Source: Methanomassiliicoccales archaeon (GTDB lineage: Archaea; Thermoplasmatota; Thermoplasmata; RBG-16-68-12; SOIM01). Taken from it: a stretch of DNA of 64,000 bases. This document shows positions 4,332 through 60,498 of the stretch, piece after piece. The notes beneath the pieces are model-generated. The model searched no databases and had not been told where the DNA came from. It worked only from the letters and a program-made list of their open reading frames with translations. Every line of letters starts with the position of its first letter. The first letter of the stretch is position 1. Where the stretch lies: the NCBI GenBank assembly GCA_030593295.1, contig JAUVHO010000001.1, positions 49,111 to 113,110 on the forward strand, in the 5' to 3' direction. Both the position numbers and the translations under genes were made by a program.

Positions 4332-4351
4332 ACCCCAAGGGGAGGGAGTCA

Positions 4352-5542: not shown

Positions 5543-5543
5543 A

Positions 5544-7913
5544 ATGGGAACCTGGGACGTTAGACTTCTGACAGCATCCTACGATAGAGACAATGTGACC
5601 ATTGAGCTGTTCGGCAAAACAAAGGAAGGCAAGTCAATCACGATCCAGTACGAGGGTTTCAAACCCTACTTCTATGCAGTGGAACCGCCCGAGAGGCTGC
5701 TGGAACAGCTGAGAAATGACGGTGAGGTCCTGAAGATCGAACCCAAGGAGCTCATGTACGAGAATGTGCCCACTCAATGCTCCAAGATCACCCTGAGGCA
5801 TCCCTGGAAGACCCCGGACTACAGGGAAAGATGTAGAGCCGGCGGAGCAAGGCAGGTGCTGGCAGCGGACATCCCGTTCGCACATCGTTTCGTCTACGAT
5901 ATGGACCTTGCATCCAGTGTCAGGGTCGAGGGGGAGGAGATCGAGAAGGACAGAACGACCGATTTGGTGGTCAGGGCCAAAGGTTTCGAAGAGATCGAAC
6001 CTCTCCACCCAGAACTCAAGATCCTGAGCTTCGACATAGAGAACAGCATCAAGGACGGGCACCTGCTGGTCATCGGAGTGGCGATCAGAGAGGATGGAGA
6101 ACTGAGACAGGTCCGCCTCGAGGGCACCGAGAGAGAGATGATCGAGAACTTGGAGAAGCTCATTCGTGATGAAGACCCGGACGTGATAACCGGGTACAAC
6201 ATCGATGGATACGACATTCCAGTGATAGAGGAAAGGGCCGAGAAGTTGGGCATCAAGAGCCTGAGATGGAGCAGGAACGACACGCCCCTGCGGCATATCG
6301 GCAACCGATTCTGGAGGGCTCATGGCAGGATAATCGCGGACGCGTGGTGGAATGCTAAGAAGCAGCTCAAACCAAAACAGGAGACTTTGAACCATGTATC
6401 ACAACTTCTACTTGGGGAGCAGAAGGCGGACGTTGATCCATCAAGCATCGATGAAGAATGGGAGAAGGACTCCGAGAAGGTAATCAAGTACTGCCTGAAG
6501 GACGCCGAACTGGCCCTGCGGATCCTGGAGAAGATAGAGATTATAAACAAATCCATGGACCTTGCAACTGTCTCCAAACTCCCGGTCGACGAGGTCCTGA
6601 ACGGAAGGACATCCACGCTGATCGATTCGATACTCATAAGAGAAGCGGACAAGAACAACATCGGGGTCCCAATGACGAGAAGGGACAGAACCACCGAATC
6701 CATAGAAGGGGGTTATGTCCATGCCATCAAACCCGGAATCCACCACTGGCTGTGCGTGCTGGACTTCAAGGCCATGTATCCCAGCCTGATAATCGAGAAG
6801 AACGTTTGTTTCACCACAGTGGACGATTCCGGACAGACGGTCAGCCCAATAGGTGTTCATTTCCTCTCCGCGGATCAGAGGGAAGGTCTGCTACCGAAAA
6901 TACTGGACAGGCTGATGAAAGAGAGGGATGACATCAAGAGGAAGATGAACGAGGCGGGGACCGAGGATGAGAGGAAGTACTATTACGGCCTTCAGGACGC
7001 GGTCAAGACCCTGATGAACGCCTTCTACGGAGTGTTCGCTTCGGCATTCTACAGGTTCACTAATCCCAAGATAGGGGCAAGCATCACCGCATTCGCCAGG
7101 CAGAACATCAAGAGCATAATCGGCAAGCTGGAAGAAGAGGGCATTCAGATCATTTACGGGGACACGGACAGCATCTTTCTGAAATCGCCGCATGAGAATC
7201 TAGAGCAATCAGTAGAGTTCGGAACCAAGGCGGCCGAGCGCTTCTCCAAAGGAGGTGCGGTACTGGAATTCGAGCAGGTCCTTTCCGCTTTCTTTTCTCA
7301 CGGAAGGAAGAAGAGGTACGTCGGGAAGGCTGTCTGGCCCGAAGAGAAGATGATCGTGCGAGGCTACGAGCTCCGGAGGACGGATGCGTTCGACCTTCAA
7401 GGCAAGACGCAAGAAGCCGTTTTCGAAAGACTACTGGAGGACGACGTGAACGGAGTGATAAAGATAGCCAGGGATACAGTATCGGACGTCCAGCAGGGCA
7501 AGGTACCCCCGGAGCAACTTGTCATCTCCAGGACGTGCAAGGACCCAAAGCAGTACGCAAATCCAAACTCAATGGCAAACGTGCAGGCCGCCAGAAAGCT
7601 CCAGAACATGGGATACGAGTTCACGCCAGGGATGAAGGTCTCGTGGATAGTGACCAACGGAAAGAAGACCCCGTTAGAAGTGGAGCCGTATATCAGCGGC
7701 AGGAAGTTCGAGTCAACACCGGACAGGGATTACTATGCGAGAAGGATCGCACACACATTGTCCTACATAACTGACCACTTCGACTGGGACGAGAGGAGCT
7801 TGCTCGCCGGGTCCCAGCAGGCCACCTTGTTCGAGGGGAACTTCAAGAAGAAAGAGAAAAAGAAGGAGGTCAAGACCACCAACAAGGACCTGACGCTCAA
7901 GGATTTCATGTGA
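5544..7913 (+). CDS. polB: Family B DNA polymerase (intein-free)
   Basis: Exonuclease motifs 'FDIE', 'GYNIDGYDIPV' and 'YCLKDAEL'. Polymerase motifs 'DFKAMYPSLI', 'KTLMNAFYG' and 'YGDTDS'. The ORF track begins at TTG 5529, overlapping the previous gene; ATG 5544 is the likelier start. Confidence 0.92.
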   Translation: MGTWDVRLLTASYDRDNVTIELFGKTKEGKSITIQYEGFKPYFYAVEPPERLLEQLRNDGEVLKIEPKELMYENVPTQCSKITLRHPWKTPDYRERCRAGGARQVLAADIPFAHRFVYDMDLASSVRVEGEEIEKDRTTDLVVRAKGFEEIEPLHPELKILSFDIENSIKDGHLLVIGVAIREDGELRQVRLEGTEREMIENLEKLIRDEDPDVITGYNIDGYDIPVIEERAEKLGIKSLRWSRNDTPLRHIGNRFWRAHGRIIADAWWNAKKQLKPKQETLNHVSQLLLGEQKADVDPSSIDEEWEKDSEKVIKYCLKDAELALRILEKIEIINKSMDLATVSKLPVDEVLNGRTSTLIDSILIREADKNNIGVPMTRRDRTTESIEGGYVHAIKPGIHHWLCVLDFKAMYPSLIIEKNVCFTTVDDSGQTVSPIGVHFLSADQREGLLPKILDRLMKERDDIKRKMNEAGTEDERKYYYGLQDAVKTLMNAFYGVFASAFYRFTNPKIGASITAFARQNIKSIIGKLEEEGIQIIYGDTDSIFLKSPHENLEQSVEFGTKAAERFSKGGAVLEFEQVLSAFFSHGRKKRYVGKAVWPEEKMIVRGYELRRTDAFDLQGKTQEAVFERLLEDDVNGVIKIARDTVSDVQQGKVPPEQLVISRTCKDPKQYANPNSMANVQAARKLQNMGYEFTPGMKVSWIVTNGKKTPLEVEPYISGRKFESTPDRDYYARRIAHTLSYITDHFDWDERSLLAGSQQATLFEGNFKKKEKKKEVKTTNKDLTLKDFM

Positions 7914-9797: not shown

Positions 9798-10595
9798 ATG
9801 TGGCAATTGGTCCTCCTGGTCATCCTCGTGTTCGGGGTTGCCTTCATATACTCCAACCTTGGGCTCGGGGGAGGTCTTCTCTATGTACCGATCCTTCTAT
9901 CACTGGCCTTCACGGGTGAGGGAGCTGAGGACATCGCTGTTCCCGTTTCGCTCACATTCACAACGGCCACGGGTCTGTCGGCAACCATCAACCACCACAG
10001 GAAGGGGCTCGTGAACTTCAAACTGGCAGGCATCCTCATAACAGGAGCGCTCATCGGCTCGGTCATTGGTGCGCTCTTCAACCTGAACACCTCCAAGCAG
10101 GTCTTCTTGGCGTTCTTCGTGACCGTCATCGTGATAATGGGAGTCAAGATGCTCCATGATTGGAGGAAGAACCGGAGATCGGAGGACGAGGACGACGATT
10201 CCATGATGACCAAGGGGAGGACTGCAGCCTCGGCGAACGGCACACTGGCTTCCGGGTTCCTGTCGGGGGGTCTTGGCATAGGCGGGGGTCTGGTAAATGT
10301 TCCTCTAATGGTCTATGTGCTCGGACGGGGGACCAGGAAGGCGATAGGGACCTCTTCTGCAATGATCGTTGTCACTTCCATATTCGGCTTCTTCAGCTAC
10401 TTGTGGCTGAAGCCCTCCCTGGAAATCGACTTCAACCTGATAGCGCTGCTCTGGCCTTTCGTGTTCGTGGGCGCGTTCGTGGGTTCCAGATGGGGGCTGA
10501 AGAAACTGAAGACAAGGTCAGTGGCGCTCATCTTCATTCTTGTCATGTTCATCGCGGCCGGGAAGATGACTGTGGATCTGATACTTGGAACCTGA
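9798..10595 (+). CDS. TSUP (TauE/SafE) family membrane transporter
   Basis: Multi-TM protein with 'GLGGGLLYVPILL' and 'GLGIGGGLVNVPLMV' half-repeat motifs. The ORF track start is TTG 9771; ATG 9798 is the likelier start. Confidence 0.8.
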   Translation: MWQLVLLVILVFGVAFIYSNLGLGGGLLYVPILLSLAFTGEGAEDIAVPVSLTFTTATGLSATINHHRKGLVNFKLAGILITGALIGSVIGALFNLNTSKQVFLAFFVTVIVIMGVKMLHDWRKNRRSEDEDDDSMMTKGRTAASANGTLASGFLSGGLGIGGGLVNVPLMVYVLGRGTRKAIGTSSAMIVVTSIFGFFSYLWLKPSLEIDFNLIALLWPFVFVGAFVGSRWGLKKLKTRSVALIFILVMFIAAGKMTVDLILGT

Positions 10596-46211: not shown

Positions 46212-48104
46212 TCAGTTCTGGATTTGAATCGTGCCATCAGCGATAGCGTGGACCCACAATGCTTCGCCGGCTGTCAGCAAGTGGGCATCATTGACCTTTT
46301 GAAGATTGAATGGACCGCTCGGTGAATATGCTTCCACACGATCGTAGGAGATCCCGCTCAAGAGGTTCCCTACCGTACGCTGGGTCATGGACGGGAAGCC
46401 GATCAGGTTCCAGCCGGCCTTGATCTGTATGGAGATCTGGGGTTGAACAACGCCTGTGACCGTCCAAATGCCGGACTGGGGGCCAAAGACCCAGATCCCC
46501 ATGCTCTCATCGACGTAGGTCAGGTCATTGAACGGTTTTGATGGAGTGTATGATTTCCAAGGGTTCAGTTGGTCCCCGGTGTCGTATGCCCACAGGGCAC
46601 CATTCTGTTGAAGCTGGAGCATTGACGCCGGATCGGTGTAGCTTGTCTGGAATGGAATGGAAACCAAGTTCGCATTGGAGGCGGTCATGATGCGGCATTT
46701 ACCGCCAGCTACGCGCGAGGTGTTCCTCCACCCCTGATAGTCCCTCGTTGTGATTTGATAGAAGAGGTTGTCGGGATCCATCCCGCCGCCCACATGAACG
46801 AAGCTGGTCGTACCGGCGAAGACCACGCCAATGGGTGTGGTGTTGAAGGATCCGTATCCGCAGAAGAGGCTGTTCCTGCCGAGGTAGATCTCATAGACGA
46901 ACACATCCGCTTCTCCGCCACCATCGTCGGGTGACAAGGACCATTCCAGAACGATATCTTGCTTGCTCACTGACAATTCAACTTTCTGAAGATCCGCAAC
47001 CTCCGGCGGATTCCCGCTTGGCATCTTGTTGAACTCGTCCAGGATCATGTACGCCCTGTAGCTGGTCACCCATGATTCGTCCGTGTTGTCCGGGTCCCCG
47101 TAGTTGGTGGGCAGGCCGCCGTCATCGTCCCCGTCCGCTGCCATCTGCCTGTCCGTTAGGTTGAGGAAGTTGAGATAATAGATGTCCTCGCCGGTGATGT
47201 CCCAGATTCCGAGATGGCCTCCGGCGTACCATGCTTCCCAGCCTACCTGACTCCTTCCGGGACCAGAACCTGGATTCACCACTTGTGTCTCTAAGAACGG
47301 TCCATATGTCTGCATCCAGGTCACGTTGGGGAACTCCTGCATGCTTGACTTCCATATGCCCCACATCGAGGTCCCGCCCGCAAGCGCCCAGCTTTCGGTT
47401 GACAGCAAAGAGGGATCGTTCTCCATCTCTGTCATTGTAGCATTGCCGTATCCAACTGCTTCCCATCTTGCTGTAGCATTGCCGGTATCCAGAGCATACA
47501 TGTACATGTTGCCCGCAGCCCAACCACGGATATGGACCCGGGTCTCGAAAGGAAAGAGGAAGATATCGGGTTCCATGCCACTGACACTGGATATGAACTG
47601 CATTGATGCATTCGCGTACCAGCTGTACGTCCAATTATTGTATGCGTTGCGGAATCTCTGTTCGGCTGCGAGGGCCCAAGAGGAGCTGTAGACCTTTCCC
47701 GAATCGGGCTCCAGCCAAGCAGGGTGAGCAATCGAGTAGTTCCAAGCGTTCAGAACACTAGGAAAGTAAGTGTTGTCACCAGTCAGTTCATAGTACCTAC
47801 ACCAGACCCAGATGGACTCAAGGGTGTTATCGGTGTTCTCGAATGCGATGTCCTCTGCCTCATTCATCCCTCCGTCCACACCTTGCAGTGTTGCGAAGAA
47901 CTGCGCCGTTTTCGTGAAGTTATCGAGGTGCCAGTCCACTTGGGCAGGCAAGGGTCCAATATCCGAGTTCGACCGATCGACTTCAATTGTATCACTCAAA
48001 GAGGGCGATGTCGCAAATCCAGATAGACCCAGTACAAGACTGAGAGTTATGAGAATCAAGCCCACTTGTCGCCCAGAGCCACCAAGAAGCATCTCCTTAC
48101 CCAA
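46212..48104 (-). CDS. Secreted protein: unknown N-terminal module, FN3-like domain, shared C-terminal 'GWNL(I/V)GFPS' module
   Basis: Signal peptide 'VGLILITLSLVLGLSGFA'. The C-terminal 150 aa or so is homologous to the C-termini of 51281-53491 and 53604-55571. Confidence 0.7.
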   Translation of the reverse strand: MGKEMLLGGSGRQVGLILITLSLVLGLSGFATSPSLSDTIEVDRSNSDIGPLPAQVDWHLDNFTKTAQFFATLQGVDGGMNEAEDIAFENTDNTLESIWVWCRYYELTGDNTYFPSVLNAWNYSIAHPAWLEPDSGKVYSSSWALAAEQRFRNAYNNWTYSWYANASMQFISSVSGMEPDIFLFPFETRVHIRGWAAGNMYMYALDTGNATARWEAVGYGNATMTEMENDPSLLSTESWALAGGTSMWGIWKSSMQEFPNVTWMQTYGPFLETQVVNPGSGPGRSQVGWEAWYAGGHLGIWDITGEDIYYLNFLNLTDRQMAADGDDDGGLPTNYGDPDNTDESWVTSYRAYMILDEFNKMPSGNPPEVADLQKVELSVSKQDIVLEWSLSPDDGGGEADVFVYEIYLGRNSLFCGYGSFNTTPIGVVFAGTTSFVHVGGGMDPDNLFYQITTRDYQGWRNTSRVAGGKCRIMTASNANLVSIPFQTSYTDPASMLQLQQNGALWAYDTGDQLNPWKSYTPSKPFNDLTYVDESMGIWVFGPQSGIWTVTGVVQPQISIQIKAGWNLIGFPSMTQRTVGNLLSGISYDRVEAYSPSGPFNLQKVNDAHLLTAGEALWVHAIADGTIQIQN

Positions 48105-49077: not shown

Positions 49078-50937
49078 TCATTTCTGGATTTCGATGTCGC
49101 CCGGGGGCAGTATCCTGACCATCTCGTCGATGGGGACCTGGAACATCTGGCTCAGCTCTCTTGCGATGGTCTCCTTCTTCGTTTCCCCTGGTTTAAGTAC
49201 GATGACTCGCTCGCTTTGAGCCTCCAGAGCACTTCTCGGACCGCACATGACCTTCCTTGCGTCCTGGTAGTATATCTCGCCGACAGCGACCTCCATCTCC
49301 AGATCACGGAAATGATTCCTTTTACCTCTGATCACGAAGGCACCTTTCGGCAGGAACTCCCCCGATTCTGGGTGCTTGCTGACCTGCTCTGGCTTGACCC
49401 AATACGCTATACCTCCGGCCAGCTTCGAGCTCCAGGCCTTTGAGAAGGTTACCGCGAACTGACACGCCTCCTTCAAGGTGACTTCACCGGCACTGGACCC
49501 GCCCTTTATCACCACACTCGGCGCACCCCTGACCTCGGCGTGGGCGAACCTGTCGCCATCCTTGAGGTGCTTCTTCACGATCCTGTCATTGCTCCTGGCG
49601 TCCCTCCCGGCTATGACCAGATTTCCTTCGCTTGATATGAACCATCTGTACGCGTCGAACCAGTACTGCTTCGTGGGTTCTATCCTGGGATACTTCTCCC
49701 TTCTGGCCCTCTGCTTCGCAGCCTTCTCTATTTCCTCCTGGGTCTCGACGATGACGTCCTTCAGTCTTCCCCTCTTGGCCTTCTGCTTCTTGGCCTTCTC
49801 GTAGAAGATGTTGGCGTTGTCATAGACGCTCTTGTTGTATTGGAGGGCGAATTTCTTTCCGTTGGGGAGGACGATGGATGCCGTGTGTTTCTTATGGTCA
49901 ATGGATTCGATCAGGGGGTCCTTGGTCTTGCCGGAGCGTAGCTCTATCAGCACTAATTCGAAGGGCCCTGGATTCGCGTGGATGTAGTCCGCAACCTCCC
50001 TGTACTGTGTTTCTTTCTCAATTGATTCTTTGATGGCCACTTCCTGCTGTCTTATCATCCTCTCGAATCTGGCGGTCTCGTCATCCTCCTCGACCTCTTC
50101 CACATCCTCGGTGATGGAGGAGACAAAGCTCTTCAAGGCTTCTGAAAAAGATTCTGATGAGATGATGTCCAGTCCCTCGTGCACCTTCAGGGGAATGGGA
50201 GTGGCATCGATGGTCTCCTCCTCTTGGATAACCAGTGTAGGTGACAGCTCGGTCTGGATGGACTTGAAAATGCCCTGCAATTCCTGGTGGACCCGGCTAA
50301 TCTGGTCACCGGACAGTTCATTGGCAGGAGATTTCTTGTCGATATCGGATCGAAGGCACAGTTCCTCCGAGTACTGGCCACCGAGGTTCATATCGAGAGC
50401 CAATGTCCTGACGAGATCTTTATCGGATTCCTTGATGATTGAGCCGAACTCTTCCAGTGAAAGCGATTTGGGATCGTGGTGGCTCGGCGGGAATTTGTAT
50501 TCCTCGCCTATCTTAATCTCCCTGCTGCTCCAGGACTCCCTTCTGAAATGGTTGACGATCTTACCATCCTGGATGAGAACGACGTTCCCCTTTCCGAACA
50601 GCTCGTAGATCAGCTCGAAGTTCTCTTTCTTCTCGAAACCGATTACGACGACCCTATCGAAATCATGTTGTCTTACGGAAACCAATCTTGCGTTGGACAG
50701 GTGTTTTCTCAGGACCATAGCGAATGTTCCAGGTTGGCCCTCACCCTTCTTGTGATCACGAATGAAGAACCATTTCCCCGCCTTGGTGAATATGGCCTTC
50801 TTTCCGTAGTCCTTGGAGCTCGCTCTGATCGAGAGCTCATCACCGGTCTGATAGGCCTTGTCGAATCGGCCTCCGATCAAGGACTGCAGCTCTTGTACGA
50901 CCGCCATTAGGTCGAAGCTGCTCATCGCTTTCTTCAT
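49078..50937 (-). CDS. NFACT-family protein (FbpA / Rqc2 / RqcH homolog)
   Basis: NFACT-N start 'MSSFDLMAVVQEL', a central coiled coil, and an NFACT-R/DUF814-like segment 'GRDARSNDRIVKKHLKDGDRFAHAEVRGAPSVVIK'. The ORF track starts at 51033; Met at 50937 or 50925 is likelier. Confidence 0.85.
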   Translation of the reverse strand: MKKAMSSFDLMAVVQELQSLIGGRFDKAYQTGDELSIRASSKDYGKKAIFTKAGKWFFIRDHKKGEGQPGTFAMVLRKHLSNARLVSVRQHDFDRVVVIGFEKKENFELIYELFGKGNVVLIQDGKIVNHFRRESWSSREIKIGEEYKFPPSHHDPKSLSLEEFGSIIKESDKDLVRTLALDMNLGGQYSEELCLRSDIDKKSPANELSGDQISRVHQELQGIFKSIQTELSPTLVIQEEETIDATPIPLKVHEGLDIISSESFSEALKSFVSSITEDVEEVEEDDETARFERMIRQQEVAIKESIEKETQYREVADYIHANPGPFELVLIELRSGKTKDPLIESIDHKKHTASIVLPNGKKFALQYNKSVYDNANIFYEKAKKQKAKRGRLKDVIVETQEEIEKAAKQRARREKYPRIEPTKQYWFDAYRWFISSEGNLVIAGRDARSNDRIVKKHLKDGDRFAHAEVRGAPSVVIKGGSSAGEVTLKEACQFAVTFSKAWSSKLAGGIAYWVKPEQVSKHPESGEFLPKGAFVIRGKRNHFRDLEMEVAVGEIYYQDARKVMCGPRSALEAQSERVIVLKPGETKKETIARELSQMFQVPIDEMVRILPPGDIEIQK

Positions 50938-51181: not shown

Positions 51182-51255
51182 GCCGATGTAGCATAGTCTG
51201 GTGGTGCGATACCTTGGTAAGGTATAGGTCGAGGGTTCGAATCCCTCCATCGGCT
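51182..51255 (+). tRNA. tRNA-Thr (anticodon GGU)
   Basis: Hand-folded cloverleaf. Acceptor GCCGATG/CATCGGC, D-arm GCAT/GTGC, anticodon arm ATACC-TTGGTAA-GGTAT, variable AGGTC, T-arm GAGGG-TTCGAAT-CCCTC, discriminator T. CCA is not encoded. The 3' 20 nt plus 3 nt downstream (51236-51258) form repeat copy 1. Confidence 0.92.
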
Positions 51256-51280
51256 TCTACGAGTTTTAGTTCGAAACGTC

Positions 51281-53491
51281 CTAGTAATTGTCAACAATCC
51301 AACTGGTATCAGTTTCCACGTAGACCCAATAGCCCCATCCTGCTTGCATGAACTCTCCATCACTCATTACTCTCAGGAAATACGGTGAAGCTAACGGATC
51401 AAAACCTTCCACCCTAGCAGCTCCGATCTGAGCTTTCAAATCCCCAATGGTATAGGAGGGGGTGAAAGATGGGAAACCTACGAGATTCCATCCGGTTCTC
51501 AGATATATTGTGGTTGTCTTCGGGATGAGTCCCGCGACAGTGAGATTCGACACCTCACTGACGTTTGTCCACACACCCATTGAATGATTGAGGTTCTCAA
51601 GTTCTCCAAGGTAGGGTTTGAACTTCATATGCCACTTCCACTTCTCCGCGGACGAATCGTAATACCATGCCTTGTCCCACTTCAAAGTCTGAGGGACTTT
51701 TCCTATGCTTTCATCTGACTGGATTAGTGGTACGGACACGAGGTTGGGACCTTCCTGTAACGGTCTTGTGAACTTGCCTGCCTGATTCTCAGCACAGCTG
51801 ATGTTGTTGTTCAGATCTACTGCACACACCAGATAGAAGTAGTTGCTAGGGTCACCCTCACCTGCATGATTGTCAACGAATTCAGTTGTACCATTGGGAA
51901 GAAAGGCAACGGAAACATAACCTGACCCAAGGGAGTCATAGACTGTACTTCTGCGGATTTCGTAACTCACGACAGTTTCGAGGCCCCTTCCATCATCAGA
52001 AGACAGGGACCAAGTGATAATGACATTCTCCCAGTCTGTGCCACTGAGAGTGGCCTGGACATCTTCAGGCGGGGAAGCCGGGGGAAGTTGATTGTGATAA
52101 GTTATTGATACACCATCAAGCATTGGAGTCTTCTCAGGTTGCTCTGTGGAAAGAAAGGCCCTGTATCTCAGATACCTATCATCATTGTGCCCAGACCACA
52201 AGGGTTGACCAGTCGGAATTGCATAGTAGGTATCGGGGGTTCCGTCTGGTCCCACGAAGTCCCAGATCATTTTGTCATTGTTGCTAGCTATCTGGAATTT
52301 GAGTTCTGTCCCTGGAGGTTGAGAAGTGGGAATCCAGCTGATATTGCCATATTTTGTGGACAAACTATGCGTATCCAGGACTGATGAATTGTAAACACCC
52401 TCTTCAATGTAATAGGAATCAGCGACTCCCACCCTTCTGCAACCACAAACCACTTCTGACGCATCATAATAGATCTTCAGTTTTCCGGTTTCATTCAATA
52501 CGCAGGGATTGTAGAGATTGTAGGAATCAAAGCTCCCTGGGGGACCCGGACCAAGGATGGGATTTGAATGGTACTTGGTCCAGTTGATACCATTGATGGA
52601 AGTTGCGTATGCAATCGTGTAGCGAACATAGGAGTCATCACCCACTATGCCTTTGGTGTACCACATCCTGTAGGTGTATCCGTCGAAAATCACAAAAGGT
52701 CTATAGATGTACTTCTTGTACACCTCCCCATCGGGTCTCATAACTGGGCCTCCCGGGTGTTTGGTCCAGTTCAATCCATCTGGAGAAGTGGCGTAGCCCA
52801 CACCCGGCTCAGAAGGCCTGAACCTCCCAGTGTACCACATTTTGTACAAGGATCCTTGTCGAATAACGGAACCCAACAGAAGCTCATTAGAATCCCACTC
52901 CCCTTCTTCGCCCTTTTGCATGATGGGGTTCAATGGGCTCTTTGTCCAAGAGATTCCGTCTATGGACTCAGCATATCCGATACTCCAGTTGATGATGCCA
53001 GTTCCCCCCAAGTACCACATTCTGTATATGGATCCCTCTTTCAGAATCCTGGGAGTATGTATCGCATATGATTCCCAGCTTCCTGGGGGTCCAGAAGTGA
53101 GGACGGGATTGTGTTCGTATTCTGTCCAATTCACCCCGTCCTCAGATTCGGCATAGCCGAAACTCGTTGCGGTGCCATTCCAACCTGAATACCACATTTT
53201 GTAGGTTCCACCTTCTTTGAGCACGAATGGACTGGACGCGCCATATTGGTCCCAGGCACCAGGACTGCCCTCAACAATTGGGTTCAGAGGATATTTCCTC
53301 CACTCCGTAGCAAGTATCACCTTCCCGGGAACAGATATTGTGTCGACGTTATACGGTTCCCCCAAAAGAAAATCCTCTTGGGTTCCTTGGTCCCAAACAT
53401 TGCCGGTTCCAACGCCTATGGATAGGACAAGTTGGAATAGGATGATTGTCGAAATCCATTTAAGGCGCCCACATACTCCTCCATTATTCAT
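51281..53491 (-). CDS. Secreted protein: five-bladed beta-propeller-like repeats (GH43/32/130-clan-like), FN3-like domain, shared C-terminal module
   Basis: Signal peptide 'LKWISTIILFQLVLSIGVG'. Five repeats end in 'YKMWYSG', 'YRMWYLG', 'YKMWYTG', 'YRMWYTKG' and 'LKIYYDA'. The ORF track extends to 53683 by reading through the tRNA-like repeat; Met at 53491 is the likelier start. Confidence 0.75.
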   Translation of the reverse strand: MNNGGVCGRLKWISTIILFQLVLSIGVGTGNVWDQGTQEDFLLGEPYNVDTISVPGKVILATEWRKYPLNPIVEGSPGAWDQYGASSPFVLKEGGTYKMWYSGWNGTATSFGYAESEDGVNWTEYEHNPVLTSGPPGSWESYAIHTPRILKEGSIYRMWYLGGTGIINWSIGYAESIDGISWTKSPLNPIMQKGEEGEWDSNELLLGSVIRQGSLYKMWYTGRFRPSEPGVGYATSPDGLNWTKHPGGPVMRPDGEVYKKYIYRPFVIFDGYTYRMWYTKGIVGDDSYVRYTIAYATSINGINWTKYHSNPILGPGPPGSFDSYNLYNPCVLNETGKLKIYYDASEVVCGCRRVGVADSYYIEEGVYNSSVLDTHSLSTKYGNISWIPTSQPPGTELKFQIASNNDKMIWDFVGPDGTPDTYYAIPTGQPLWSGHNDDRYLRYRAFLSTEQPEKTPMLDGVSITYHNQLPPASPPEDVQATLSGTDWENVIITWSLSSDDGRGLETVVSYEIRRSTVYDSLGSGYVSVAFLPNGTTEFVDNHAGEGDPSNYFYLVCAVDLNNNISCAENQAGKFTRPLQEGPNLVSVPLIQSDESIGKVPQTLKWDKAWYYDSSAEKWKWHMKFKPYLGELENLNHSMGVWTNVSEVSNLTVAGLIPKTTTIYLRTGWNLVGFPSFTPSYTIGDLKAQIGAARVEGFDPLASPYFLRVMSDGEFMQAGWGYWVYVETDTSWIVDNY

Positions 53492-53534
53492 GCCCACAGC
53501 ACCCCAATACCAAAGTAATGTCCAAACTAATAAT

Positions 53535-53584
53535 CCTTTCGACGTCGGCTTTGAAACTGAACTTCGAAACCCTCCATCGCTTCT
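53535..53584 (+). repeat. tRNA-Thr 3'-end repeat, copy 2 (att-like)
   Basis: 53563-53584 'ttcgaaaccctccatcgcttct' matches the tRNA core 'ttcgaatccctccatcggcttct' with one substitution and one 1-nt deletion. The left arm 'cctttcgacgtcggctttgaaactgaac' is shared only with copy 3. Confidence 0.85.
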
Positions 53585-53603
53585 GTAGAACCATGATGCC
53601 CAT

Positions 53604-55571
53604 CTAGGAGTTCGTGACTGTCCAAGTCCTGTCGGACTCAACGTAGATCCAATAGCCGTGCCCTGCCTGTAAGAACTCTCCATCGTTCATTACTCTAAGG
53701 TTGTATGGTGGAGCCTGTGAATCGAATCCTTCTACCCTTGCGGCACCTGTTTTGGCCTTCAAGTCCAAGAGGGAGTAAGACGTATCGAAAGAGGGGAAGC
53801 TGACAAGATTCCATCCAGCTTCGAAACTGATATCAGTAAATGAGGGAACAAGCCCCGCTACAGTTAGATTGGAATCCTCAACGACGTTGACCCAGACTCC
53901 CATTCGATGATTGATAGTCTTCAAGTCCCCCTTGTACGGCTTGAAGGTCACATATGATTTCCACATGTCCTCAAATGCGACGTAGGTCCATGCCTTGTCG
54001 AATCTGACTGTCTGTAGAACTCCTTCTGTTGACTCGTCAAACTGGATAAGTGGAACGGATATTAGACGCTGCCCTTCTAGAAGCGGGCGTGTAAACTTGG
54101 CGACTTGGTTCTTCGTGCATGAGGTGCTGTCTGTTGTGTTCACTGCACAAATGATATAGAAATAGGAGTCCACGTTGCCCTCTCCAGCGAGAACATCTGT
54201 GTACGTACCAGTTCCGTTTGAGACCGTGTCATACAGGACATACCCCAATCCTTGGGAATCGAAAGATGTGTTGCGGTAGATGTCATATCGTTTCACGCCA
54301 TCCGCACTGCCGTCGTCATCAGGAGACAAATCCCAACTCAGAGTCACGTTCTGTGAGTTCTCTCCACTGAGGACAGCCATCGGATTGATAGGGGGTCTCA
54401 GCGAAGAAGAACCGTTTGGTGTTGAGAATATTCGGACTATCCCCTGGCTACGACTTCCCGTAATGAGTTCGGGATGTCCGTCAACGTCGGGGTCACCGAC
54501 ATAGAGACTTGCCCCCCATCCTTTGAGCGATCCTGACGTCCAGTCCAGTTCATAAGTCGATGTAGAAACGTTGTATTTGTAAATCTGGAACGATTCGGCA
54601 TGAACGTAGTTACCGTACGCAATGATTATCTCCTCAATCGAATCGCCGTCGGAATCGCCTGCGATTGCATATCTGGGTGTGTCATTTGGCCTGACGGTCC
54701 AATTGTCCTCGACAATCCAGTTGCCTCCGACTTGCCCATAGATTACAACAACTCCGTGATACCCTACCCGGAGAATCTCAGGATTTCCATCCGAATCGAA
54801 GTCACCTATTCCTATGCCCATCGACGAGTAACCACTACTCGATCCCGCCCCTTCCAAACCGTACGTGCTACCATCAAATCCGTAGACCTCTATGTCCACT
54901 TTACCCGTTCCCAGCACGATCTCATTGTATGAGTCCGCATCAGCATTTCCAATTCTTAGCAGGTTGCCAGTAGTGGGCGCAGACCAGATCAGGGAATAAC
55001 CGGAAGAATTCACCGAATATACTATCAGGTCGGATCCTGTGACGCCTACCAACTCATCCTGCTTATCACCGTCCAAGTCTCCTACTGCAATATCATGGAA
55101 ATTTCCAAGAATGCTTAGTTCTACAACATATGATGAGGGGGTCACACCTAGAATATGAATACCTCTGGTGCCGTTCACTCCCCCTGGAAAGATCACTTCG
55201 TTCATTCCATCGCCATCTATGTCAGATACAATCAACTGAACAGAAGGAGAGATACTGGCAGTGGATCTCTGCAGCGTAATATCGGGAATTCTCCGTTCCT
55301 CCACATATCCAACGCCGTCCCGATAGACGTATGCGACAAGTTCGGGTGTGCCAGAGCCTATGTAGTAATCGTAGTTGGTCAATAGTTCAGTGTCTCCGTC
55401 GTTATCCCAATCTCCTACACACAATCCACGAATGGTTACATAGGTCTCATTGATAACTTGGATCTCGGCTTCTTGATTGTATTTCGATGCATATCCTTCT
55501 GAAGGTAGCACAAGAATGGAAGTCAATAGTAGAGCGCCCACGAGCAAACATCGCCTGCCATTTGCTGTCAT
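53604..55571 (-). CDS. Secreted FG-GAP/VCBS-type beta-propeller protein, FN3-like domain, shared C-terminal module
   Basis: Signal peptide 'CLLVGALLLTSILVLPSEGYA'. Repeated Ca-binding-like loops: 'DWDNDGDTE', 'DIDGDGMNE', 'DLDGDKQDE', 'DFDSDGNPE', 'DSDGDSIEE', 'DPDVDGHPE'. Confidence 0.8.
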   Translation of the reverse strand: MTANGRRCLLVGALLLTSILVLPSEGYASKYNQEAEIQVINETYVTIRGLCVGDWDNDGDTELLTNYDYYIGSGTPELVAYVYRDGVGYVEERRIPDITLQRSTASISPSVQLIVSDIDGDGMNEVIFPGGVNGTRGIHILGVTPSSYVVELSILGNFHDIAVGDLDGDKQDELVGVTGSDLIVYSVNSSGYSLIWSAPTTGNLLRIGNADADSYNEIVLGTGKVDIEVYGFDGSTYGLEGAGSSSGYSSMGIGIGDFDSDGNPEILRVGYHGVVVIYGQVGGNWIVEDNWTVRPNDTPRYAIAGDSDGDSIEEIIIAYGNYVHAESFQIYKYNVSTSTYELDWTSGSLKGWGASLYVGDPDVDGHPELITGSRSQGIVRIFSTPNGSSSLRPPINPMAVLSGENSQNVTLSWDLSPDDDGSADGVKRYDIYRNTSFDSQGLGYVLYDTVSNGTGTYTDVLAGEGNVDSYFYIICAVNTTDSTSCTKNQVAKFTRPLLEGQRLISVPLIQFDESTEGVLQTVRFDKAWTYVAFEDMWKSYVTFKPYKGDLKTINHRMGVWVNVVEDSNLTVAGLVPSFTDISFEAGWNLVSFPSFDTSYSLLDLKAKTGAARVEGFDSQAPPYNLRVMNDGEFLQAGHGYWIYVESDRTWTVTNS

Positions 55572-55798
55572 TCTGACAACTCCCTCCTCTCAAATCATCA
55601 TCTGTTAGGTTTTCTATTCCAGACAGAGAGTATGAGATATCAATCATCGAGAATATAACCATTGTGCATGAATTCAGGCTCCCTCTTCCCAAGCATGTCT
55701 ACTTACTAAGTGTTCACATCAACCCAGATGTGGCGGATGAGCCCTCTTCTCCCTCCTGCTCACATCACAAACGAAGATTTCTGACGTTATGTTTAAAG

Positions 55799-55848
55799 CC
55801 TTCTTCGTCGGCTTTGAAGCTGAACTTCGAATCCCTCCATCGGCTTCT
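55799..55848 (+). repeat. tRNA-Thr 3'-end repeat, copy 3 (att-like)
   Basis: 55826-55848 is identical (23/23) to 51236-51258. The left arm 'ccttcttcgtcggctttgaagctgaac' resembles the left arm of copy 2. Confidence 0.9.
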
Positions 55849-55934
55849 TGTGGATGTGAAACTGGAGTTTGAGCTATTCTCCAGGCTTGAGCGTAAAAGA
55901 ACCGTACCACATTTCTTAAGACCCCCAAACCCTA

Positions 55935-57389
55935 TTGAAAACTTGGATGCGACTAACAAAGACACTCATTCTAGTCCTGGTCATCCCCATTCTCCTCATT
56001 CCGATCGCCGTCGCGGATGTCACACCTGTACCGGTCTGGCCTTCCTCAGACATGTTGAACCATGATGCGTCCCACAACCTGACCACATGGTTCGCCACAA
56101 GCCTGAACGTCCACTTCGACGCGAACGTTTCTGGACAATGGTCCACGCCTGATCAGTCGCATCTTCCGCCGGGTTTCCAGGCACAGGATTCATACACCCT
56201 CCCCCTCACGGATGGGAGCGTGGAAGCTCGATATCTGGCATCCGGGATCCTCAAGGACATCATGCTGGATGGGGAGACACCGTACATTGCACAATCCGAA
56301 GATGAGAACGACCTGAGAGAAGTTACATACCAGATTGCCACCGACCTGGAGCTGAATCACAGCCAGGCACAGTTCTTCCAGGGTATCGCGGTATGGTTCG
56401 CGGACATGCCAGAGGATGAGTTGCTGATAATCGTGAGATTGGAGGAGCAATCAGCCCTGGGTAGCCCATACATCTTCAACAGCCTTCATGTTGGGTTCAG
56501 ATCATCGGATCTGAGGGTGGTGTCGGTATACGTGACAGTCTGGTATTCCTCCTTGGGGGACGCTTCATTCGCCACTTCGGACGCGATCACACTCTCCCAG
56601 GGCAATGCAGTGGATTTCTTTGAAGCCGGGGATGTCTCGGGGTCTTCATATCTTGTGGGGATCTGGAACGGGACCACTTACGCGTACCTGATACGAACCA
56701 CATGGGATGTGGGTCCTGCGTCGTCATACTACCTTGACGAATGGGTGGATGTTAACACCGGCGAAGTTCTGGGGAGAGAAGGCCCGCAGGTTATCATAGT
56801 GGACACGGGTCTGCCGTTCGGTGCTTGGTTCTGGGCACTGGTAGCGATCATTACGACCTCTCTGGTCGTGGGACTGGCCATGTTCTACCGCATCAACTCG
56901 GAGAGAGCACTGGACCACTTCACCAGAGGAAGGATATTCGGATACCTGCAGGCGAATCCGGGTGCCAATTACACGATGATTAGGGAATCCCTGAGATTGT
57001 CCAACGGTACCGCCGCCTATCACCTCTGGGTACTGGAGAGGTTGGGATTCATCAGGTCCGTCAGCAAGGGACGGATAAAGCAGTTCTACCCCCAGGGCGT
57101 CTCGCTCTCGAAAGGTTCTCTAATCCTTACCAGGCTCCAGTATTCCATTCTCGACCTGCTGGAAGCGGAAGGTCCCCTCAGTCAAGCGGATATCGCGAGG
57201 TCGCTAGAGATGTCCAGGCAGAGAGCGCATTACAACGTCAAGGTTCTCAGATCGCTGGAGCTCATTGAGCAAACAGGTGACAAGAAGGAGAAACTGTCCT
57301 TCAAAGGGGAGGAGACGATCGCGGGCGGTGAGGATGGTCTCTTCGTGTCGCCTTCTGTCAAAGAAAAGGCTTCCTCAAAGGAGAATTGA
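55935..57389 (+). CDS. Membrane-tethered putative transcription regulator: extracellular domain, TM helix, two winged-helix (ArsR/MarR-like) domains
   Basis: Signal/anchor 'LILVLVIPILLIPIAVA', mid TM 'WFWALVAIITTSLVVGLAMFY'. Then 'IFGYLQANPGANYTMIRESLRLSNGTAAYHLWVLERLGFI' and 'LQYSILDLLEAEGPLSQADIARSLEMSRQRAHYNVKVLRSLELI'. Confidence 0.7.
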   Translation: MKTWMRLTKTLILVLVIPILLIPIAVADVTPVPVWPSSDMLNHDASHNLTTWFATSLNVHFDANVSGQWSTPDQSHLPPGFQAQDSYTLPLTDGSVEARYLASGILKDIMLDGETPYIAQSEDENDLREVTYQIATDLELNHSQAQFFQGIAVWFADMPEDELLIIVRLEEQSALGSPYIFNSLHVGFRSSDLRVVSVYVTVWYSSLGDASFATSDAITLSQGNAVDFFEAGDVSGSSYLVGIWNGTTYAYLIRTTWDVGPASSYYLDEWVDVNTGEVLGREGPQVIIVDTGLPFGAWFWALVAIITTSLVVGLAMFYRINSERALDHFTRGRIFGYLQANPGANYTMIRESLRLSNGTAAYHLWVLERLGFIRSVSKGRIKQFYPQGVSLSKGSLILTRLQYSILDLLEAEGPLSQADIARSLEMSRQRAHYNVKVLRSLELIEQTGDKKEKLSFKGEETIAGGEDGLFVSPSVKEKASSKEN

Positions 57390-57426: not shown

Positions 57427-57459
57427 ACGGTTTAAACCAGACACCATAGGAGATTGTTA

Positions 57460-57741
57460 ATGAACATCTACGTAGGAAATCTGGACCGCGAGGTCACCGA
57501 GACCGAACTGAAGGAGGCTTTTGAGGCCTTCGGCGAAGTTTCGTCGTGTAAGATCATCACGGACAGATTCACTGGAGCATCGAGAGGATTCGGATTCGTC
57601 GAGATGTCCGGAGAAGAGGAAGCCAAGAAAGCGATGGCTGAGATGGATGGCCAGGATTTGAAAGGAAGGAACATCAAGGTCAATGAAGCACGACCTCGCA
57701 CCGAGAGAGGTGGAGGCGGAGGCGGCGGACGCCGCTTCTAA
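57460..57741 (+). CDS. Glycine-rich RNA-binding protein with a single RRM domain (bacterial Rbp type)
   Basis: RNP-2 'IYVGNL', RNP-1 'RGFGFVEM', C-terminal 'RGGGGGGGRRF'. The ORF track start is TTG 57454; ATG 57460 is the likelier start. Confidence 0.85.
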   Translation: MNIYVGNLDREVTETELKEAFEAFGEVSSCKIITDRFTGASRGFGFVEMSGEEEAKKAMAEMDGQDLKGRNIKVNEARPRTERGGGGGGGRRF

Positions 57742-57926
57742 TGGCGACCCTCTGAAAAGACAGGAATCATAACAGAACTTCGACCAATGACGGCTGGGAA
57801 GGGATTTAGGACCCTTTGGGATTCCTTCATTTAACTTCTTTTGTCCGAGAGGAATTTGGTGAAATTCGATGAGGAGAGCGGGAGCTTTCTTCTCCTGCAA
57901 AGGAAAGTATTTTCAATCAATCGACA

Positions 57927-58397: not shown

Positions 58398-58601
58398 TTG
58401 TACATAGATATTATGGCAACAACAGTAGCCCTTTCAGAAAACACCCGAGACAAATTAAAGTCATTCGGCAGGAAGGGGGACACATACGACGATATCATCT
58501 GTCGAATGATGGAGATCGTTGACAGAGAGTTATATCTTGACGAGGTTTACCGACGCCTCGAAGAGAAAGAGAAGTTCGTACCCCTGGACGAGTTGGAATG
58601 A
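58398..58601 (+). CDS. Putative antitoxin partner of RelE
   Basis: 67-aa ORF with an ATGA overlap to the toxin gene. It is homologous to 18070-18285 ('NTRDKLKSFGRKGDTYDDII'). Confidence 0.6.
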   Translation: MYIDIMATTVALSENTRDKLKSFGRKGDTYDDIICRMMEIVDRELYLDEVYRRLEEKEKFVPLDELE

Positions 58602-58876
58602 GCTATGAGATAAGAGTCCATCCCAAGGCCATAAAGAATCTCAGACGTTTGCCAGAAGATGCACAGAAACTGATAGGAGAGAAGCTCAGAGAGCTTTCGA
58701 AAAGTCTCAATAATCCCAAGTCCAAGTTGGATATCAGGAAAATGAGGGGAAAGAAGAAGGATCCTCAGTTATTCAGGTTGCGGGCAGGCGTTTACAGAGT
58801 TGTATTCGAATTCTCAGACGAGGTCATCTGGATTGCGAGAATTTCCCATAGGAGAGACTCGTATAGGGGGCTTTGA
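58598..58876 (+). CDS. RelE/ParE-family toxin
   Basis: 'FRLRAGVYRVVFEFSDEVIWIARISHRRDSY' is the RelE/ParE core. Confidence 0.8.
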   Translation: MSYEIRVHPKAIKNLRRLPEDAQKLIGEKLRELSKSLNNPKSKLDIRKMRGKKKDPQLFRLRAGVYRVVFEFSDEVIWIARISHRRDSYRGL

Positions 58877-58882
58877 GTTTTG

Positions 58883-59665
58883 ATGAAAGAGAAGTACCCC
58901 AGCACTGGGCATGAAACGGCTTCAAAAAAAATCGTGGATTTTTTCTCCGACGAGAAGACTGTGGAAGCCGTGATCCTCTACGGTTCATGTGCACGAGGGA
59001 AAGCCAGCAAGGACAGTTGCCTTGACATAATGGTCCTGGTATCTCCCGAAGCCTCTTCCATTGCCAGAGGTGAATTGGAGCAACGATGGAGTAATCTCTA
59101 TGAATCGGAAGAAGTCTTCAAGAAGCTTCTGAAGGTCGGGAGATATTCGCACGTTGATCTGAGTTTCATCGACGGTCAGTTCAAGCCACAACCTCGTGAC
59201 TGGACATCTGGGCCGGATGAGTTCGAATTAGAGATAGGCAACACCCTGGTCTACAGCGTTCCACTCTGGGAACGAGGTGATTACTTCAAGGAGTTGAAAG
59301 AGAATTGGCTGCCCTACTACGACGAAGAACTCAGAAGGAGAAGACTGGCCAAAGTTCGGAAGTATTGCCTCAATAATTTGGACCGTATTCCCTTGTTTGT
59401 CGACCGGGGCCTGTACTTCCAAGCTTTCAACCGATTCTACGATGCGTTTCGGGAGTTTCTGCAGGGCATATTCATCTCTCGGAGAATCTATCCTATTGCC
59501 TACGACAAATGGATCCGGGAGCAAATCGAGGAAATTCTGGGATTGCCAGAGCTATTCCAGCAACTGAAGGGGTTCCTTGAAGTGAAACGGCTTGACAGTC
59601 AGGAGCTTACCCAGAAAGCAGGAGAACTGGAGGGACTTGTTGAGAAATATATCACTAGGATCTAA
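58883..59665 (+). CDS. Pol-beta-superfamily nucleotidyltransferase with helical C-terminal domain (second catalytic carboxylate missing)
   Basis: 'ILYGSCARGKASKDSCLDIMVLV' has GS..RG, but the DxD/E position reads D-I-M. The gene starts 7 nt after the relE stop. Confidence 0.65.
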   Translation: MKEKYPSTGHETASKKIVDFFSDEKTVEAVILYGSCARGKASKDSCLDIMVLVSPEASSIARGELEQRWSNLYESEEVFKKLLKVGRYSHVDLSFIDGQFKPQPRDWTSGPDEFELEIGNTLVYSVPLWERGDYFKELKENWLPYYDEELRRRRLAKVRKYCLNNLDRIPLFVDRGLYFQAFNRFYDAFREFLQGIFISRRIYPIAYDKWIREQIEEILGLPELFQQLKGFLEVKRLDSQELTQKAGELEGLVEKYITRI

Positions 59666-59715
59666 TCCCCCTGGCCTCGTAACCCTTTTGTACTGCTGAC
59701 CCGCTTCCTTGAACA

Positions 59716-60498
59716 ATGGATCATGAATCTAAAGTGAGGGTCGCTGAAGAGATTGGAAAAACGGTCGGAGAGAAGTTTGGAAAAGGCATCCTTTACGGAT
59801 TTCTTTCCGGATCGGTGGCTCGTGGGGAGGATACTGAACTTTCTGATCTTGAAGTCGTCTTTGTCACGAAGGAGAAGATAAGGATTCCCGGGATGTCTTC
59901 AGATGGTTATCGTGAGTTCTTGCACAAGGACCTCCAGGTCCAGATTGAGTTTCGCACGAAGGATGAGGCTGAGGAAGCAGTCGTAGATATTGGACCATGC
60001 TGGCCAATCGAAGTTGCTTACTTTCTGAACCCGCAGATGATATTTGGTGATAAGGACATAGGAGAGATGATGGCATCCGAGTTCAGAAAGAAGGTCGATG
60101 GCCTTCCGGATTCGACATTTCAGAGGGCAGCTGGACATTCTCTTCTTTGGGTTCGTGATAGCTTTCGAAAAGTCCTGAACGCCTGTAATGATGAAGATGA
60201 GATTCGAGCCATTCAGTCAGCATCTGGAATGTGTGATGAGGCTTCCAAGTTGGTTGCTCTCGTGAATAGGCGCTATTACTACAGTGCAGACGCGCGAATG
60301 AGTGAGGAAAGTAAGTCCTTTTCCAAGCTTCCTTCTAGTTTCCATTCACTGTTAGAGCAGTTGACTCTGGCACGCGGCATTGATGATATTCGAGCAACAG
60401 CAACAGGTCTATGGTCAACATGCAAAGCCCTGGCCACTTCAGAAGAAATCGTGATCGAGAGCTATGAGAGCCTCAAGAACCTGAAGCTGGAACAATAG
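59716..60498 (+). CDS. Kanamycin-nucleotidyltransferase-like (KNTase/ANT(4')-fold) protein
   Basis: 'LSGSVARGEDTELSDLEVVFV' (GS..RG..DxE), then 'VQIEFRTKDEA' and a helical C-terminal domain. These align by eye with the KNTase segments 'SDIEMMCV' and 'VEVNFDSEE'. Confidence 0.7.
   Translation: MDHESKVRVAEEIGKTVGEKFGKGILYGFLSGSVARGEDTELSDLEVVFVTKEKIRIPGMSSDGYREFLHKDLQVQIEFRTKDEAEEAVVDIGPCWPIEVAYFLNPQMIFGDKDIGEMMASEFRKKVDGLPDSTFQRAAGHSLLWVRDSFRKVLNACNDEDEIRAIQSASGMCDEASKLVALVNRRYYYSADARMSEESKSFSKLPSSFHSLLEQLTLARGIDDIRATATGLWSTCKALATSEEIVIESYESLKNLKLEQ

Follow-up and report, generated by a model that had tools for sequence, protein, structure and literature searches.

In marine bacteria, islands that grow by addition at the end of a transfer RNA (tRNA) gene are exemplified by the tycheposons of Prochlorococcus, for which tRNA-Thr(GGT) is among seven targets (bioRxiv 10.1101/2020.12.28.424599). 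In these islands integration takes place at the 3' part of a full-length tRNA, partial tRNA copies lie between the units, newcomers push older material outward, and variability peaks beside the tRNA. In streptococci, site-specific accretion among integrative and conjugative elements (ICEs) and integrative and mobilisable elements (IMEs) yields cis-mobilisable elements (CIMEs), att-flanked modules without integration genes that stand in tandem at the 3' end of a target gene and become mobilisable once an integrase-bearing element joins the array (PMC5704250). Tandem integrated elements and gene capture are also known in archaea; direct repeats of the tRNA 3' end bound the insert, the site is re-used in tandem, and the integrase can be lost (PMC8371274). 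Integrons, which have been reported from archaeal metagenome-assembled genomes (MAGs) as well (PMC9668308), hold cassettes of mostly one open reading frame (ORF), each with a recombination-site repeat; they insert new cassettes next to the platform, carry diverse and often unknown cargo, and keep the recombinase outside the cassettes. Here we describe a locus that resembles each of these systems in the respects just named: an array of small gene modules behind the tRNA-Thr(GGU) gene of a Methanomassiliicoccales archaeon (assembly GCA_030593295.1, contig JAUVHO010000001.1), located in a 64,000-nt stretch of DNA that was analysed as a whole (positions 49,111 to 113,110 of the forward strand; hereafter the window). 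Its closest analogues are the tRNA-seeded additive islands, including the tycheposon islands, and the CIMEs.

The intact tRNA-Thr(GGU) gene at 51182-51255 of the window (forward strand; ARAGORN; Rfam RF00005, 68.7 bits) is the anchor of the array and has the place of an attB or attI site. The 23-nt sequence TTCGAATCCCTCCATCGGCTTCT, which extends from the T-loop to the 3' end of the tRNA plus 3 nt (51236-51258, forward strand; the left, attL-type junction), recurs unchanged at 55826-55848, where zero matches were expected from 100 shuffles. A third copy, with one substitution and a 1-nt deletion, lies at 53563-53584, and the spacings between the copies are 2327 and 2263 nt. The two distal copies have a left arm in common whose origin is not the tRNA, and they are 86% identical over the 49 nt that include this arm (53531-53579 and 55794-55842). 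The internal site on the forward strand at 53543-53584 (nhmmer E=1.3e-15), an attP-like junction, consists of the 20-nt non-tRNA arm CGTCGGCTTTGAAACTGAAC (53543-53562), which we call the P arm, followed by a degenerate core (53563-53584). The terminal site at 55806-55848 of the same strand, an attR-type junction, consists of the P arm (55806-55825) and a core (55826-55848) that equals the tRNA end exactly. This repeat pattern is real and non-random. The original prediction for this stretch had drawn attention to the two downstream copies of the tRNA end and to the non-tRNA left side that they share, and both were reproduced, the former with its coordinates and spacings. The intervals between the copies had also been said to be AT-richer than the flanks, and they are, if mildly (45-50% against 51-57% G+C).

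The same site was found in other genomes. A scan of one genome per species for the left-arm pattern gave two MAGs, whose loci are termed L001 (Methanomassiliicoccales) and L002 (Thermoplasmata; contig JAGLME010000026.1; syntenic with the right flank of the window). Further loci, fetched around orthologues of the two genes that flank the array (encoding a winged-helix membrane protein and NFACT), gave arrays in L012, L021/L022, L025 and L026-L028 and partial arrays in L023 and L024. The original prediction had asked whether the extended repeat is absent elsewhere; it is present in seven other Thermoplasmata/Methanomassiliicoccales assemblies. Alignment of 15 distal sites (from the window, L012, L021/22, L025, L026-28, L002 and L001) showed that the repeated unit is about 43 nt long, the 20-nt P arm being followed by the 3' core of tRNA-Thr(GGU), with the consensus CGTCGGCTTTGAAACTGAAC-TTCGAAnCCCTCCATCGGCTTCT, often followed by GTRGRA (n=15). 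The P arm was conserved to the same degree as the tRNA-derived half, and within the core variability was highest in the T-loop part (TTCGAAn) and lowest in TCGGCTTCT. In a profile search of 426 kb, full sites were confined to arrays, mostly right behind tRNA-Thr, and always had the orientation of the tRNA, whichever way the cargo pointed.

Three other interpretations of the site were tried and rejected. A dispersed intergenic repeat of the REP/MITE-like kind does not agree with the profile search, in which full copies occurred in arrays only. A tie between the site and the C-terminal protein module that the two window genes share (described below) was dismissed on the cargo encoding an RRM protein, DUF6326, a K+ channel, MazG and a protein of 1202 amino acids (aa), all of which lack the module; furthermore, short homologues of the module in L003, L005 and L008 have no site alongside. 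Finally, an attC-like hairpin or dyad was considered, formed by TTTGAA/TTCGAA or, extended, by GGCTTTGAA / TTCGAAnCC. In the consensus 73% of the cells are paired, with no covariation above shuffles, and the sites L021c, L021d and L002b break the pairing.

Some further features of the sites were noted. Every 43-nt site starts and ends with the same direct 9-mer, CGTCGGCTT ... CATCGGCTT (53543-53551 / 53576-53583 and 55806-55814 / 55839-55847 in the window, and likewise in all distal sites), and the P arm may have arisen when the end of an older core became joined to a P' arm. A P' motif, GTAGGATTTGAAC, which is the reverse complement of the T-loop-like GTTCAAATCC, lies on the reverse strand at about 7830-7868 in L021, 6795-6822 in L001 and 7339-7351 in L002. 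To the right of site L021c, the flank includes GGTTCAAGGTTCAAATCCCTG, which resembles part of the T-arm of another tRNA. In L012 the left arm of the terminal site (9860-9906) is different: GATTGAGG-TTGGAAC-CCCTCC is like a T stem-loop rather than the P arm, and therefore more than one type of site arm exists. A lone, diverged version of the site (about 75% identity; nhmmer E about 1e-4 to 6e-3) is located at 17741-17782 of L003/L004, flanked by a NikR gene on one side and by a MazE/PIN toxin-antitoxin pair on the other, in a locus with no tRNA.

Breakpoints were determined by blastn comparison of the window with its relatives. Left-hand homology ended at 51258 in L012 (85.9% identity), L021 and L026 (69%), and at 51257 in L025. 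On the right, homology started at 55826 in L012 (90.2%) and at 55806 in L002 (91.8%), for which the left comparison is not applicable; in L021 and L025 only the 43-nt sites and the RRM paralogue matched on this side, and in L026 only the sites and distant paralogous matches. Within the interior, 51259-55825, nothing except the 43-nt sites matched L012, L021, L025 or L026, and L002 and L001 showed an extra, distant similarity (66-69%) in the region that codes for the shared C-terminal module.

The content of the array behind the tRNA differs in every lineage. The window has a propeller protein and an FG-GAP protein. L012, the nearest relative, whose flank proteins are about 94% identical, has an 83-aa RRM protein, encoded in sense, and a GH/CARDB membrane protein of 1202 aa that lacks the shared C-terminal module; window and L012 have zero modules in common, although their flank proteins are 94-97% identical. 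The array of L021/L022 holds DUF6326, RRM and Ion_trans_2/TrkA K+ channel genes, and that of L025 a 5.6-kb module (a 404-aa winged helix-turn-helix (wHTH) protein, a 941-aa AAA_16/TPR ATPase and a PD40 propeller) and then an RRM unit. In L026-L028 (NFACT 70%), an RRM unit, a second RRM unit and MazG with a 155-aa ORF are accompanied by progressively decayed sites. In L002, a 788-aa beta-helix protein and a 153-aa ORF lie between three sites, and in L001 the cargo comprises a 1245-aa PKD protein, encoded in sense, as well as a 641-aa beta-helix protein. Cargo thus occurs in either orientation across the arrays. These data answer in the negative the question, posed by the original prediction, of whether relatives all carry the same two genes, as both the cargo and the number of cassettes at the same tRNA vary. 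They also narrow two of its claims: one antisense gene per cassette is correct for the window but not elsewhere, where there are sense cargo and one three-gene module, and a locus for surface-protein diversification is too narrow a description of cargo that includes an RRM protein, a K+ channel, DUF6326, MazG and a STAND ATPase.

An occupied and an unoccupied state of the site next to the tRNA could be compared. In L023, L024 and L012 the tRNA core runs into GGGAGAGAATG / GGGAGAGAATGATTTAG, the start of the RRM module. In L021, GTAGGATTTG and the DUF6326 gene come after the tRNA core; at the second site, the P arm and a variant core, TTCCAATCTCTCCGTCGGCTTCT, then lead into the same GGGAGAGAATG / GGGAGAGAATGATTTAG. 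As read from their sequences, L023 and L021 provide a clean attB/attL/attR triple with the new module beside the tRNA, and this triple, together with the breakpoints at the core, upholds the earlier proposal that the distal copies are att-type junctions. All 3 variant bases of the distal core in L021 lie 5' of TCGGCTTCT, as would be expected of a crossover within the final 9 nt, although selection acting on the tRNA would produce the same distribution. The RRM module, about 650 nt long, is 85-95% identical across genomes, its homology stops at the core on both sides, and it has a different following neighbour in each genome. A new unit stands between the tRNA and the RRM unit in L021 and L025, and the RRM unit comes first in L012, L023 and L024. 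We also observed that the L023 contig breaks off exactly at the P arm behind the RRM module, and that many metagenomic contigs with close NFACT orthologues (L023, L024, P0086, P0087) are only 2-7 kb long and end inside the array, a pattern that suggests assembly breaks caused by heterogeneity at the level of strains.

No integrase, recombinase or transposase was detected in Pfam scans of about 47 window ORFs of at least 150 aa, 8 of which had no Pfam match at all, in agreement with the earlier statement that the window holds no mobility gene. Neither precomputed nor fresh annotation revealed an integrase in any relative locus (up to about 22 kb per relative), no integrase fragment was present in about 15 modules across seven assemblies, and Pfam, NCBIfam and PHROGs found no recombinase among the cassette proteins without a known family. 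The genes nearest the tRNA are cargo (the propeller protein, RRM, DUF6326 and, in L025, the wHTH protein), and no recombinase or replication module was found among them. When IMG/VR was scanned for a virus or plasmid that carries the site, the P arm and the core gave one chance match each (L011; L029, inside an ORF), and a metagenome scan gave two chance matches, L009 and L010. In L025, the region 1505-5741 encodes the 941-aa AAA_16/TPR ATPase, which is of the STAND type, and the 404-aa protein with its N-terminal winged helix; the 5.6-kb module is possibly a defence-like island. Searches of Pfam, NCBIfam, PHROGs and PDB sequences gave no match for the 404-aa protein, which is a candidate for a mobility function.

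Taken together, these data suggest an additive array of small integrase-less modules, formed by serial site-specific recombination at the 3' end of tRNA-Thr(GGU), and we consider this the probable explanation. Because no recombinase is encoded in the modules or nearby, it would have to act in trans. Each module would bring a single attP-like site of about 43-60 nt, in which the 20-nt P arm is joined to a 23-nt copy of the tRNA end and, in many cases, to a short P' motif (GTRGRA...). The module, presumably circular, would recombine with the tRNA end, the crossover most likely falling within TCGGCTTCT, the final 9 nt of the core. The tRNA would be rebuilt in this reaction, the module would land beside it, and older modules would be pushed outward and keep the P arm and core as their far-side boundary. 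The recombinase, whatever its type, might be the product of a resident gene located elsewhere, or it might be supplied by an integrase-bearing element that is present for a time, joins the modules by accretion and mobilises them; the arrays may be active at the present day. Of the three options in the original prediction, a cassette array with integron-like geometry fits best, except that the sites lack attC-type structure. A more far-reaching version is a dedicated archaeal capture platform, analogous to the integron yet unrelated to it, with the tRNA-Thr end as the landing site for single-gene circular cassettes that a chromosomal recombinase inserts, excises and reshuffles. This version, which would add cassette sub-families that bring their own promoter next to the site, is conceivable but in our judgement doubtful.

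Several observations weigh against serial site-specific recombination. No recombinase was identified, and its supply in trans is deduced from absence in the 64 kb of the genome seen. The site has no supported dyad or hairpin, unlike typical tyrosine-recombinase core sites or attC. No circular form was seen, nor an identical cassette at two positions within one population; only the RRM module was seen at position 1 in some arrays and at position 2 in others, and this module, conserved beside the tRNA in 70-94% relatives, may be ancestral flank together with an old attR. The outer sites are decayed in L026 and L002, and parts of the arrays may be fossils. Moreover, the simple model leaves the L002 array unexplained. 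That array is located between TSP3 and winged-helix (HTH) genes with no tRNA in the 8 kb examined, and the TSP3/winged-helix junction is empty in L013-L019, without a core-like target.

It is also possible that the modules are the fossils of tandem integrations, that is, integrative plasmids or proviruses at tRNA-Thr that were reduced to a cargo gene and an attR by gene capture or by decay into CIMEs. Tandem re-use of a tRNA site and loss of the integrase are documented in archaea (PMC8371274; PMC6563490) and in bacteria (PMC5704250; bioRxiv 10.1101/2020.12.28.424599), the 5.6-kb module of L025, with a wHTH protein, a STAND ATPase and a beta-propeller, resembles a small island, and the decay of outer sites points the same way. 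However, none of the roughly 15 modules from the seven assemblies retains an integrase fragment, and several modules, in a size range of 0.6-5.6 kb, are too tight for an integrase: the stop codons of the cargo in the window and L002 lie 10-25 nt from the core, and gene 1 of the window starts about 50 nt from the P arm. Repeated independent decay to exactly one gene is improbable, and the lack of a common module between the window and L012, given how similar their flank proteins are, indicates fast turnover and not slow decay. We therefore regard the fossil explanation as unlikely and favour recombination in trans. If, instead, cargo had been swapped by homologous recombination through the conserved flanks, with the 43-nt element serving as a homology patch or as a regulatory or terminator motif, the surface proteins of the window would be typical cargo. 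The conserved ends of the surface-protein cassettes (the C-terminal module at one, the P arm with a TATA-like motif at the other) could support head-domain swapping, and the lack of recombinase-type symmetry in the site would cause no difficulty. But the breakpoints fell at the same nucleotide in four independent comparisons instead of being scattered over kilobases of homologous flank, the core is duplicated exactly in the occupied/unoccupied pair, site orientation is fixed despite that of the cargo, the other intergenic regions of the 426 kb have no full sites, and 43 nt is short for efficient homologous recombination. These findings make a replacement island very improbable.

Local tandem duplication of a unit that includes the tRNA end, followed by divergence of the genes, was the third option of the original prediction. 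It would account for the similar unit lengths (2327 and 2263 nt) and for the C-terminal module that genes 1 and 2 of the window have in common at 55% identity. However, homologues in other genomes are at least as close to the two genes as these are to one another. The C-terminus of gene 1 matches proteins from such genomes best (60% and 59%, above the 55% of gene 2), and hence the two genes are not each other's closest paralogs, a point that the prediction had left to be checked. Furthermore, the non-coding site is 86-100% conserved, compared with 55% protein identity in the adjacent coding sequence, the 19-22-nt spacers are unrelated, and the relatives have unrelated cargo between the same sites. 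We rejected this option and see next to no chance that it is correct. Equally little can be said for a functional RNA or processing signal, whether a tRNA-like element, a 3' tRNA half for trans-splicing or a primer-binding site. The core is the exact 3' end of a tRNA and the consensus can form the 6-7-bp hairpin TTTGAA/TTCGAA with the pairing described above, but the covariation was not above that of shuffles, Rfam recognised the true tRNA only, and ARAGORN reported nothing at the distal copies, from which the 5' strand of the T-stem is missing. The tRNA is intact and no half is needed; the discriminator is followed by TCT and not by CCA, which makes the complement a poor primer-binding site; and the breakpoints at the core are left without an explanation.

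When serial recombination in trans is set against the described systems, similarities and differences are seen with each. Tycheposons encode a tyrosine (or serine) recombinase of their own together with a replication module (primase/helicase), neither of which is found in the units here; these units are mostly single genes with a common non-tRNA P arm, and the host is an archaeon. The modules are att-flanked and devoid of integration and transfer genes, as is characteristic of CIMEs. CIMEs, however, are decayed ICEs or IMEs of many kilobases, usually beside a recognisable ICE or IME, whereas the modules here are minimal and no helper element was seen in the 64 kb of the window or in the regions of up to about 22 kb per relative. 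The features of tRNA-integrating elements are present, namely direct repeats that flank the units, an intact tRNA, occupied and unoccupied sites, and breakpoints at the core, but not an integrase in each unit, and the archaeal tandem elements (PMC8371274) are proviruses and plasmids that measure from several to tens of kilobases and carry integrase genes or pieces of them. In integrons IntI adjoins the array; here the neighbours are NFACT/RqcH and a MarR-type membrane protein, no IntI was found, and the anchor is the end of a tRNA gene and not attI. The attC site is conserved as a hairpin (R''-L''/L'-R'), whereas the sites here are conserved in sequence (43 nt). Integron cassettes are co-oriented and mostly promoterless (Pc), whereas the cargo here has both orientations, with TATA-like boxes inside cassettes. 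Thus, the array is not an integron with respect to IntI, attC structure, or cassette orientation and promoters. Nor does it belong to the Xer/dif-type modules (pdif, IMEX), which have two inverted 11-bp arms and a 6-8-bp spacer and alternate in orientation in pdif modules; the sites here are all in direct orientation, and their dyad symmetry is weak and unsupported. In the literature covered, which is incomplete, we found no description of arrays of single-gene, integrase-less units with one common attP arm at an archaeal tRNA.

In the window, cassette 1 (51259-53542, reverse strand) contains a single gene, gene 1 (51281-53491, reverse strand), for a protein with a signal or transmembrane segment, a GH130/GH32-like beta-propeller and the shared C-terminal module (FN3 and beta-sandwich domains). 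Cassette 2 (53585-55805, reverse strand) likewise contains one gene, gene 2 (53604-55571, reverse strand), for a protein with a signal peptide, FG-GAP repeats and the same module. Both genes are antisense to the tRNA, with stop codons 22 and 19 nt from the core, respectively. ORF calls thus support the earlier description of the two intervals, as well as its claim that the genes are paralogous at their 3' ends and unrelated at their 5' ends: the C-terminal 262 aa are 55% identical, and the N-terminal parts, propeller and FG-GAP, are unrelated. In a structure model (pLDDT 95), the shared module consists of an FN3 domain followed by more beta-strand domains, and because of this predicted architecture we take it to be an extracellular stalk-like part. 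By blastn, cassette 1 had no nucleotide match in the relatives beyond its end site and a distant coding similarity to L002 in the C-terminal module, and cassette 2 none beyond its end site and the corresponding similarity to L002 and L001. A third gene, at 46212-48104 of the window (reverse strand), encodes a distant version of the module; its position is conserved in all relatives, with products of 570-636 aa, and the shared module is therefore also found in a stable core gene.

A TATA-like box, ctaataatcc, can be read on the reverse strand at 53527-53536, directly beside the P arm and about 40 nt upstream of the gene 1 start, and a motif similar to it abuts the P arm in W3, L002b and L026d; it is a putative cassette promoter. 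In all, such a motif (TTATAATCCTTTTCC-like; reverse complement GGAAAAGGATTATAA) directly precedes the P arm in 4 antisense cassettes (window 53527-53536 and 55791-55800; L002 about 4965-4980 and L026 about 6930-6945, both reverse strand), three of which encode proteins with the shared C-terminal module. Judged by these motifs, the four cassettes seem to form a sub-family in which a promoter is fused to the site.

The surroundings of the array are core chromosome, with genes for PolB, thermosome, DnaK/DnaJ/GrpE, Cdc48, L15e and NFACT. The conserved left flank is the NFACT/RqcH gene (49078-50937, reverse strand; Pfam), which is divergent from the tRNA. Its orthologues, at 70-97% identity (70-88% in those fetched), adjoin tRNA-Thr in relatives, and the same tRNA-Thr stands beside NFACT in L012 and L021-L028. 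The conserved right flank encodes a membrane protein with two winged-helix (MarR-type) domains (55947-57389, forward strand; Pfam), whose orthologues are 84-94% identical and whose upstream alignment is conserved from the promoter region on. It is followed by a gene for an RRM RNA-binding protein (57454-57741, forward strand), a chromosomal paralogue of the RRM cassette of the relatives; window positions 57448-57869 are 73-76% identical (blastn) to the RRM cassettes of L012, L021 and L026. A non-coding stretch of about 240 nt downstream of the RRM gene is 85-95% conserved across the RRM cassettes (L012 5776-6016; L021 7917-8168 and L026 9005-9227, both reverse strand) and is partly kept behind the chromosomal paralogue in the window (57742-57900). 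RNAalifold predicts a long stem in it with almost no covariation, and it could be a structured 3' untranslated region or a small RNA.

Differences were also seen further out. In L021/L014 a block of about 17 kb (L021 1-6930 with L014 1-10000), absent from the window (55849-55946) and L012, lies between the last site and the winged-helix gene; it contains two ADH genes, DUF6326, genes without an assigned family, a beta-helix/PKD protein gene and a TSP3-repeat protein gene. In L002 a TSP3 gene is found left of the array. To the right of the array and the RRM gene of the window, a small accessory cluster at 58598-60498 that is conserved in L012 encodes a nucleotidyltransferase, a KNTase_C-type protein and an orthologue of an L012 gene product that is annotated as a ParE-type toxin.

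Should the modules move without an integrase of their own, they would represent a compact cassette system of archaea in which the end of a tRNA gene is the docking site. This would explain how surface proteins, channels, RNA-binding proteins and defence-like genes are exchanged among close relatives of streamlined, uncultured Thermoplasmata, and the 43-nt sequence provides a search key for further arrays, and for the recombinase, in metagenomes. Even if the units are fossil, archaea would have in this locus a well-resolved equivalent of the tRNA-seeded additive islands of marine bacteria.

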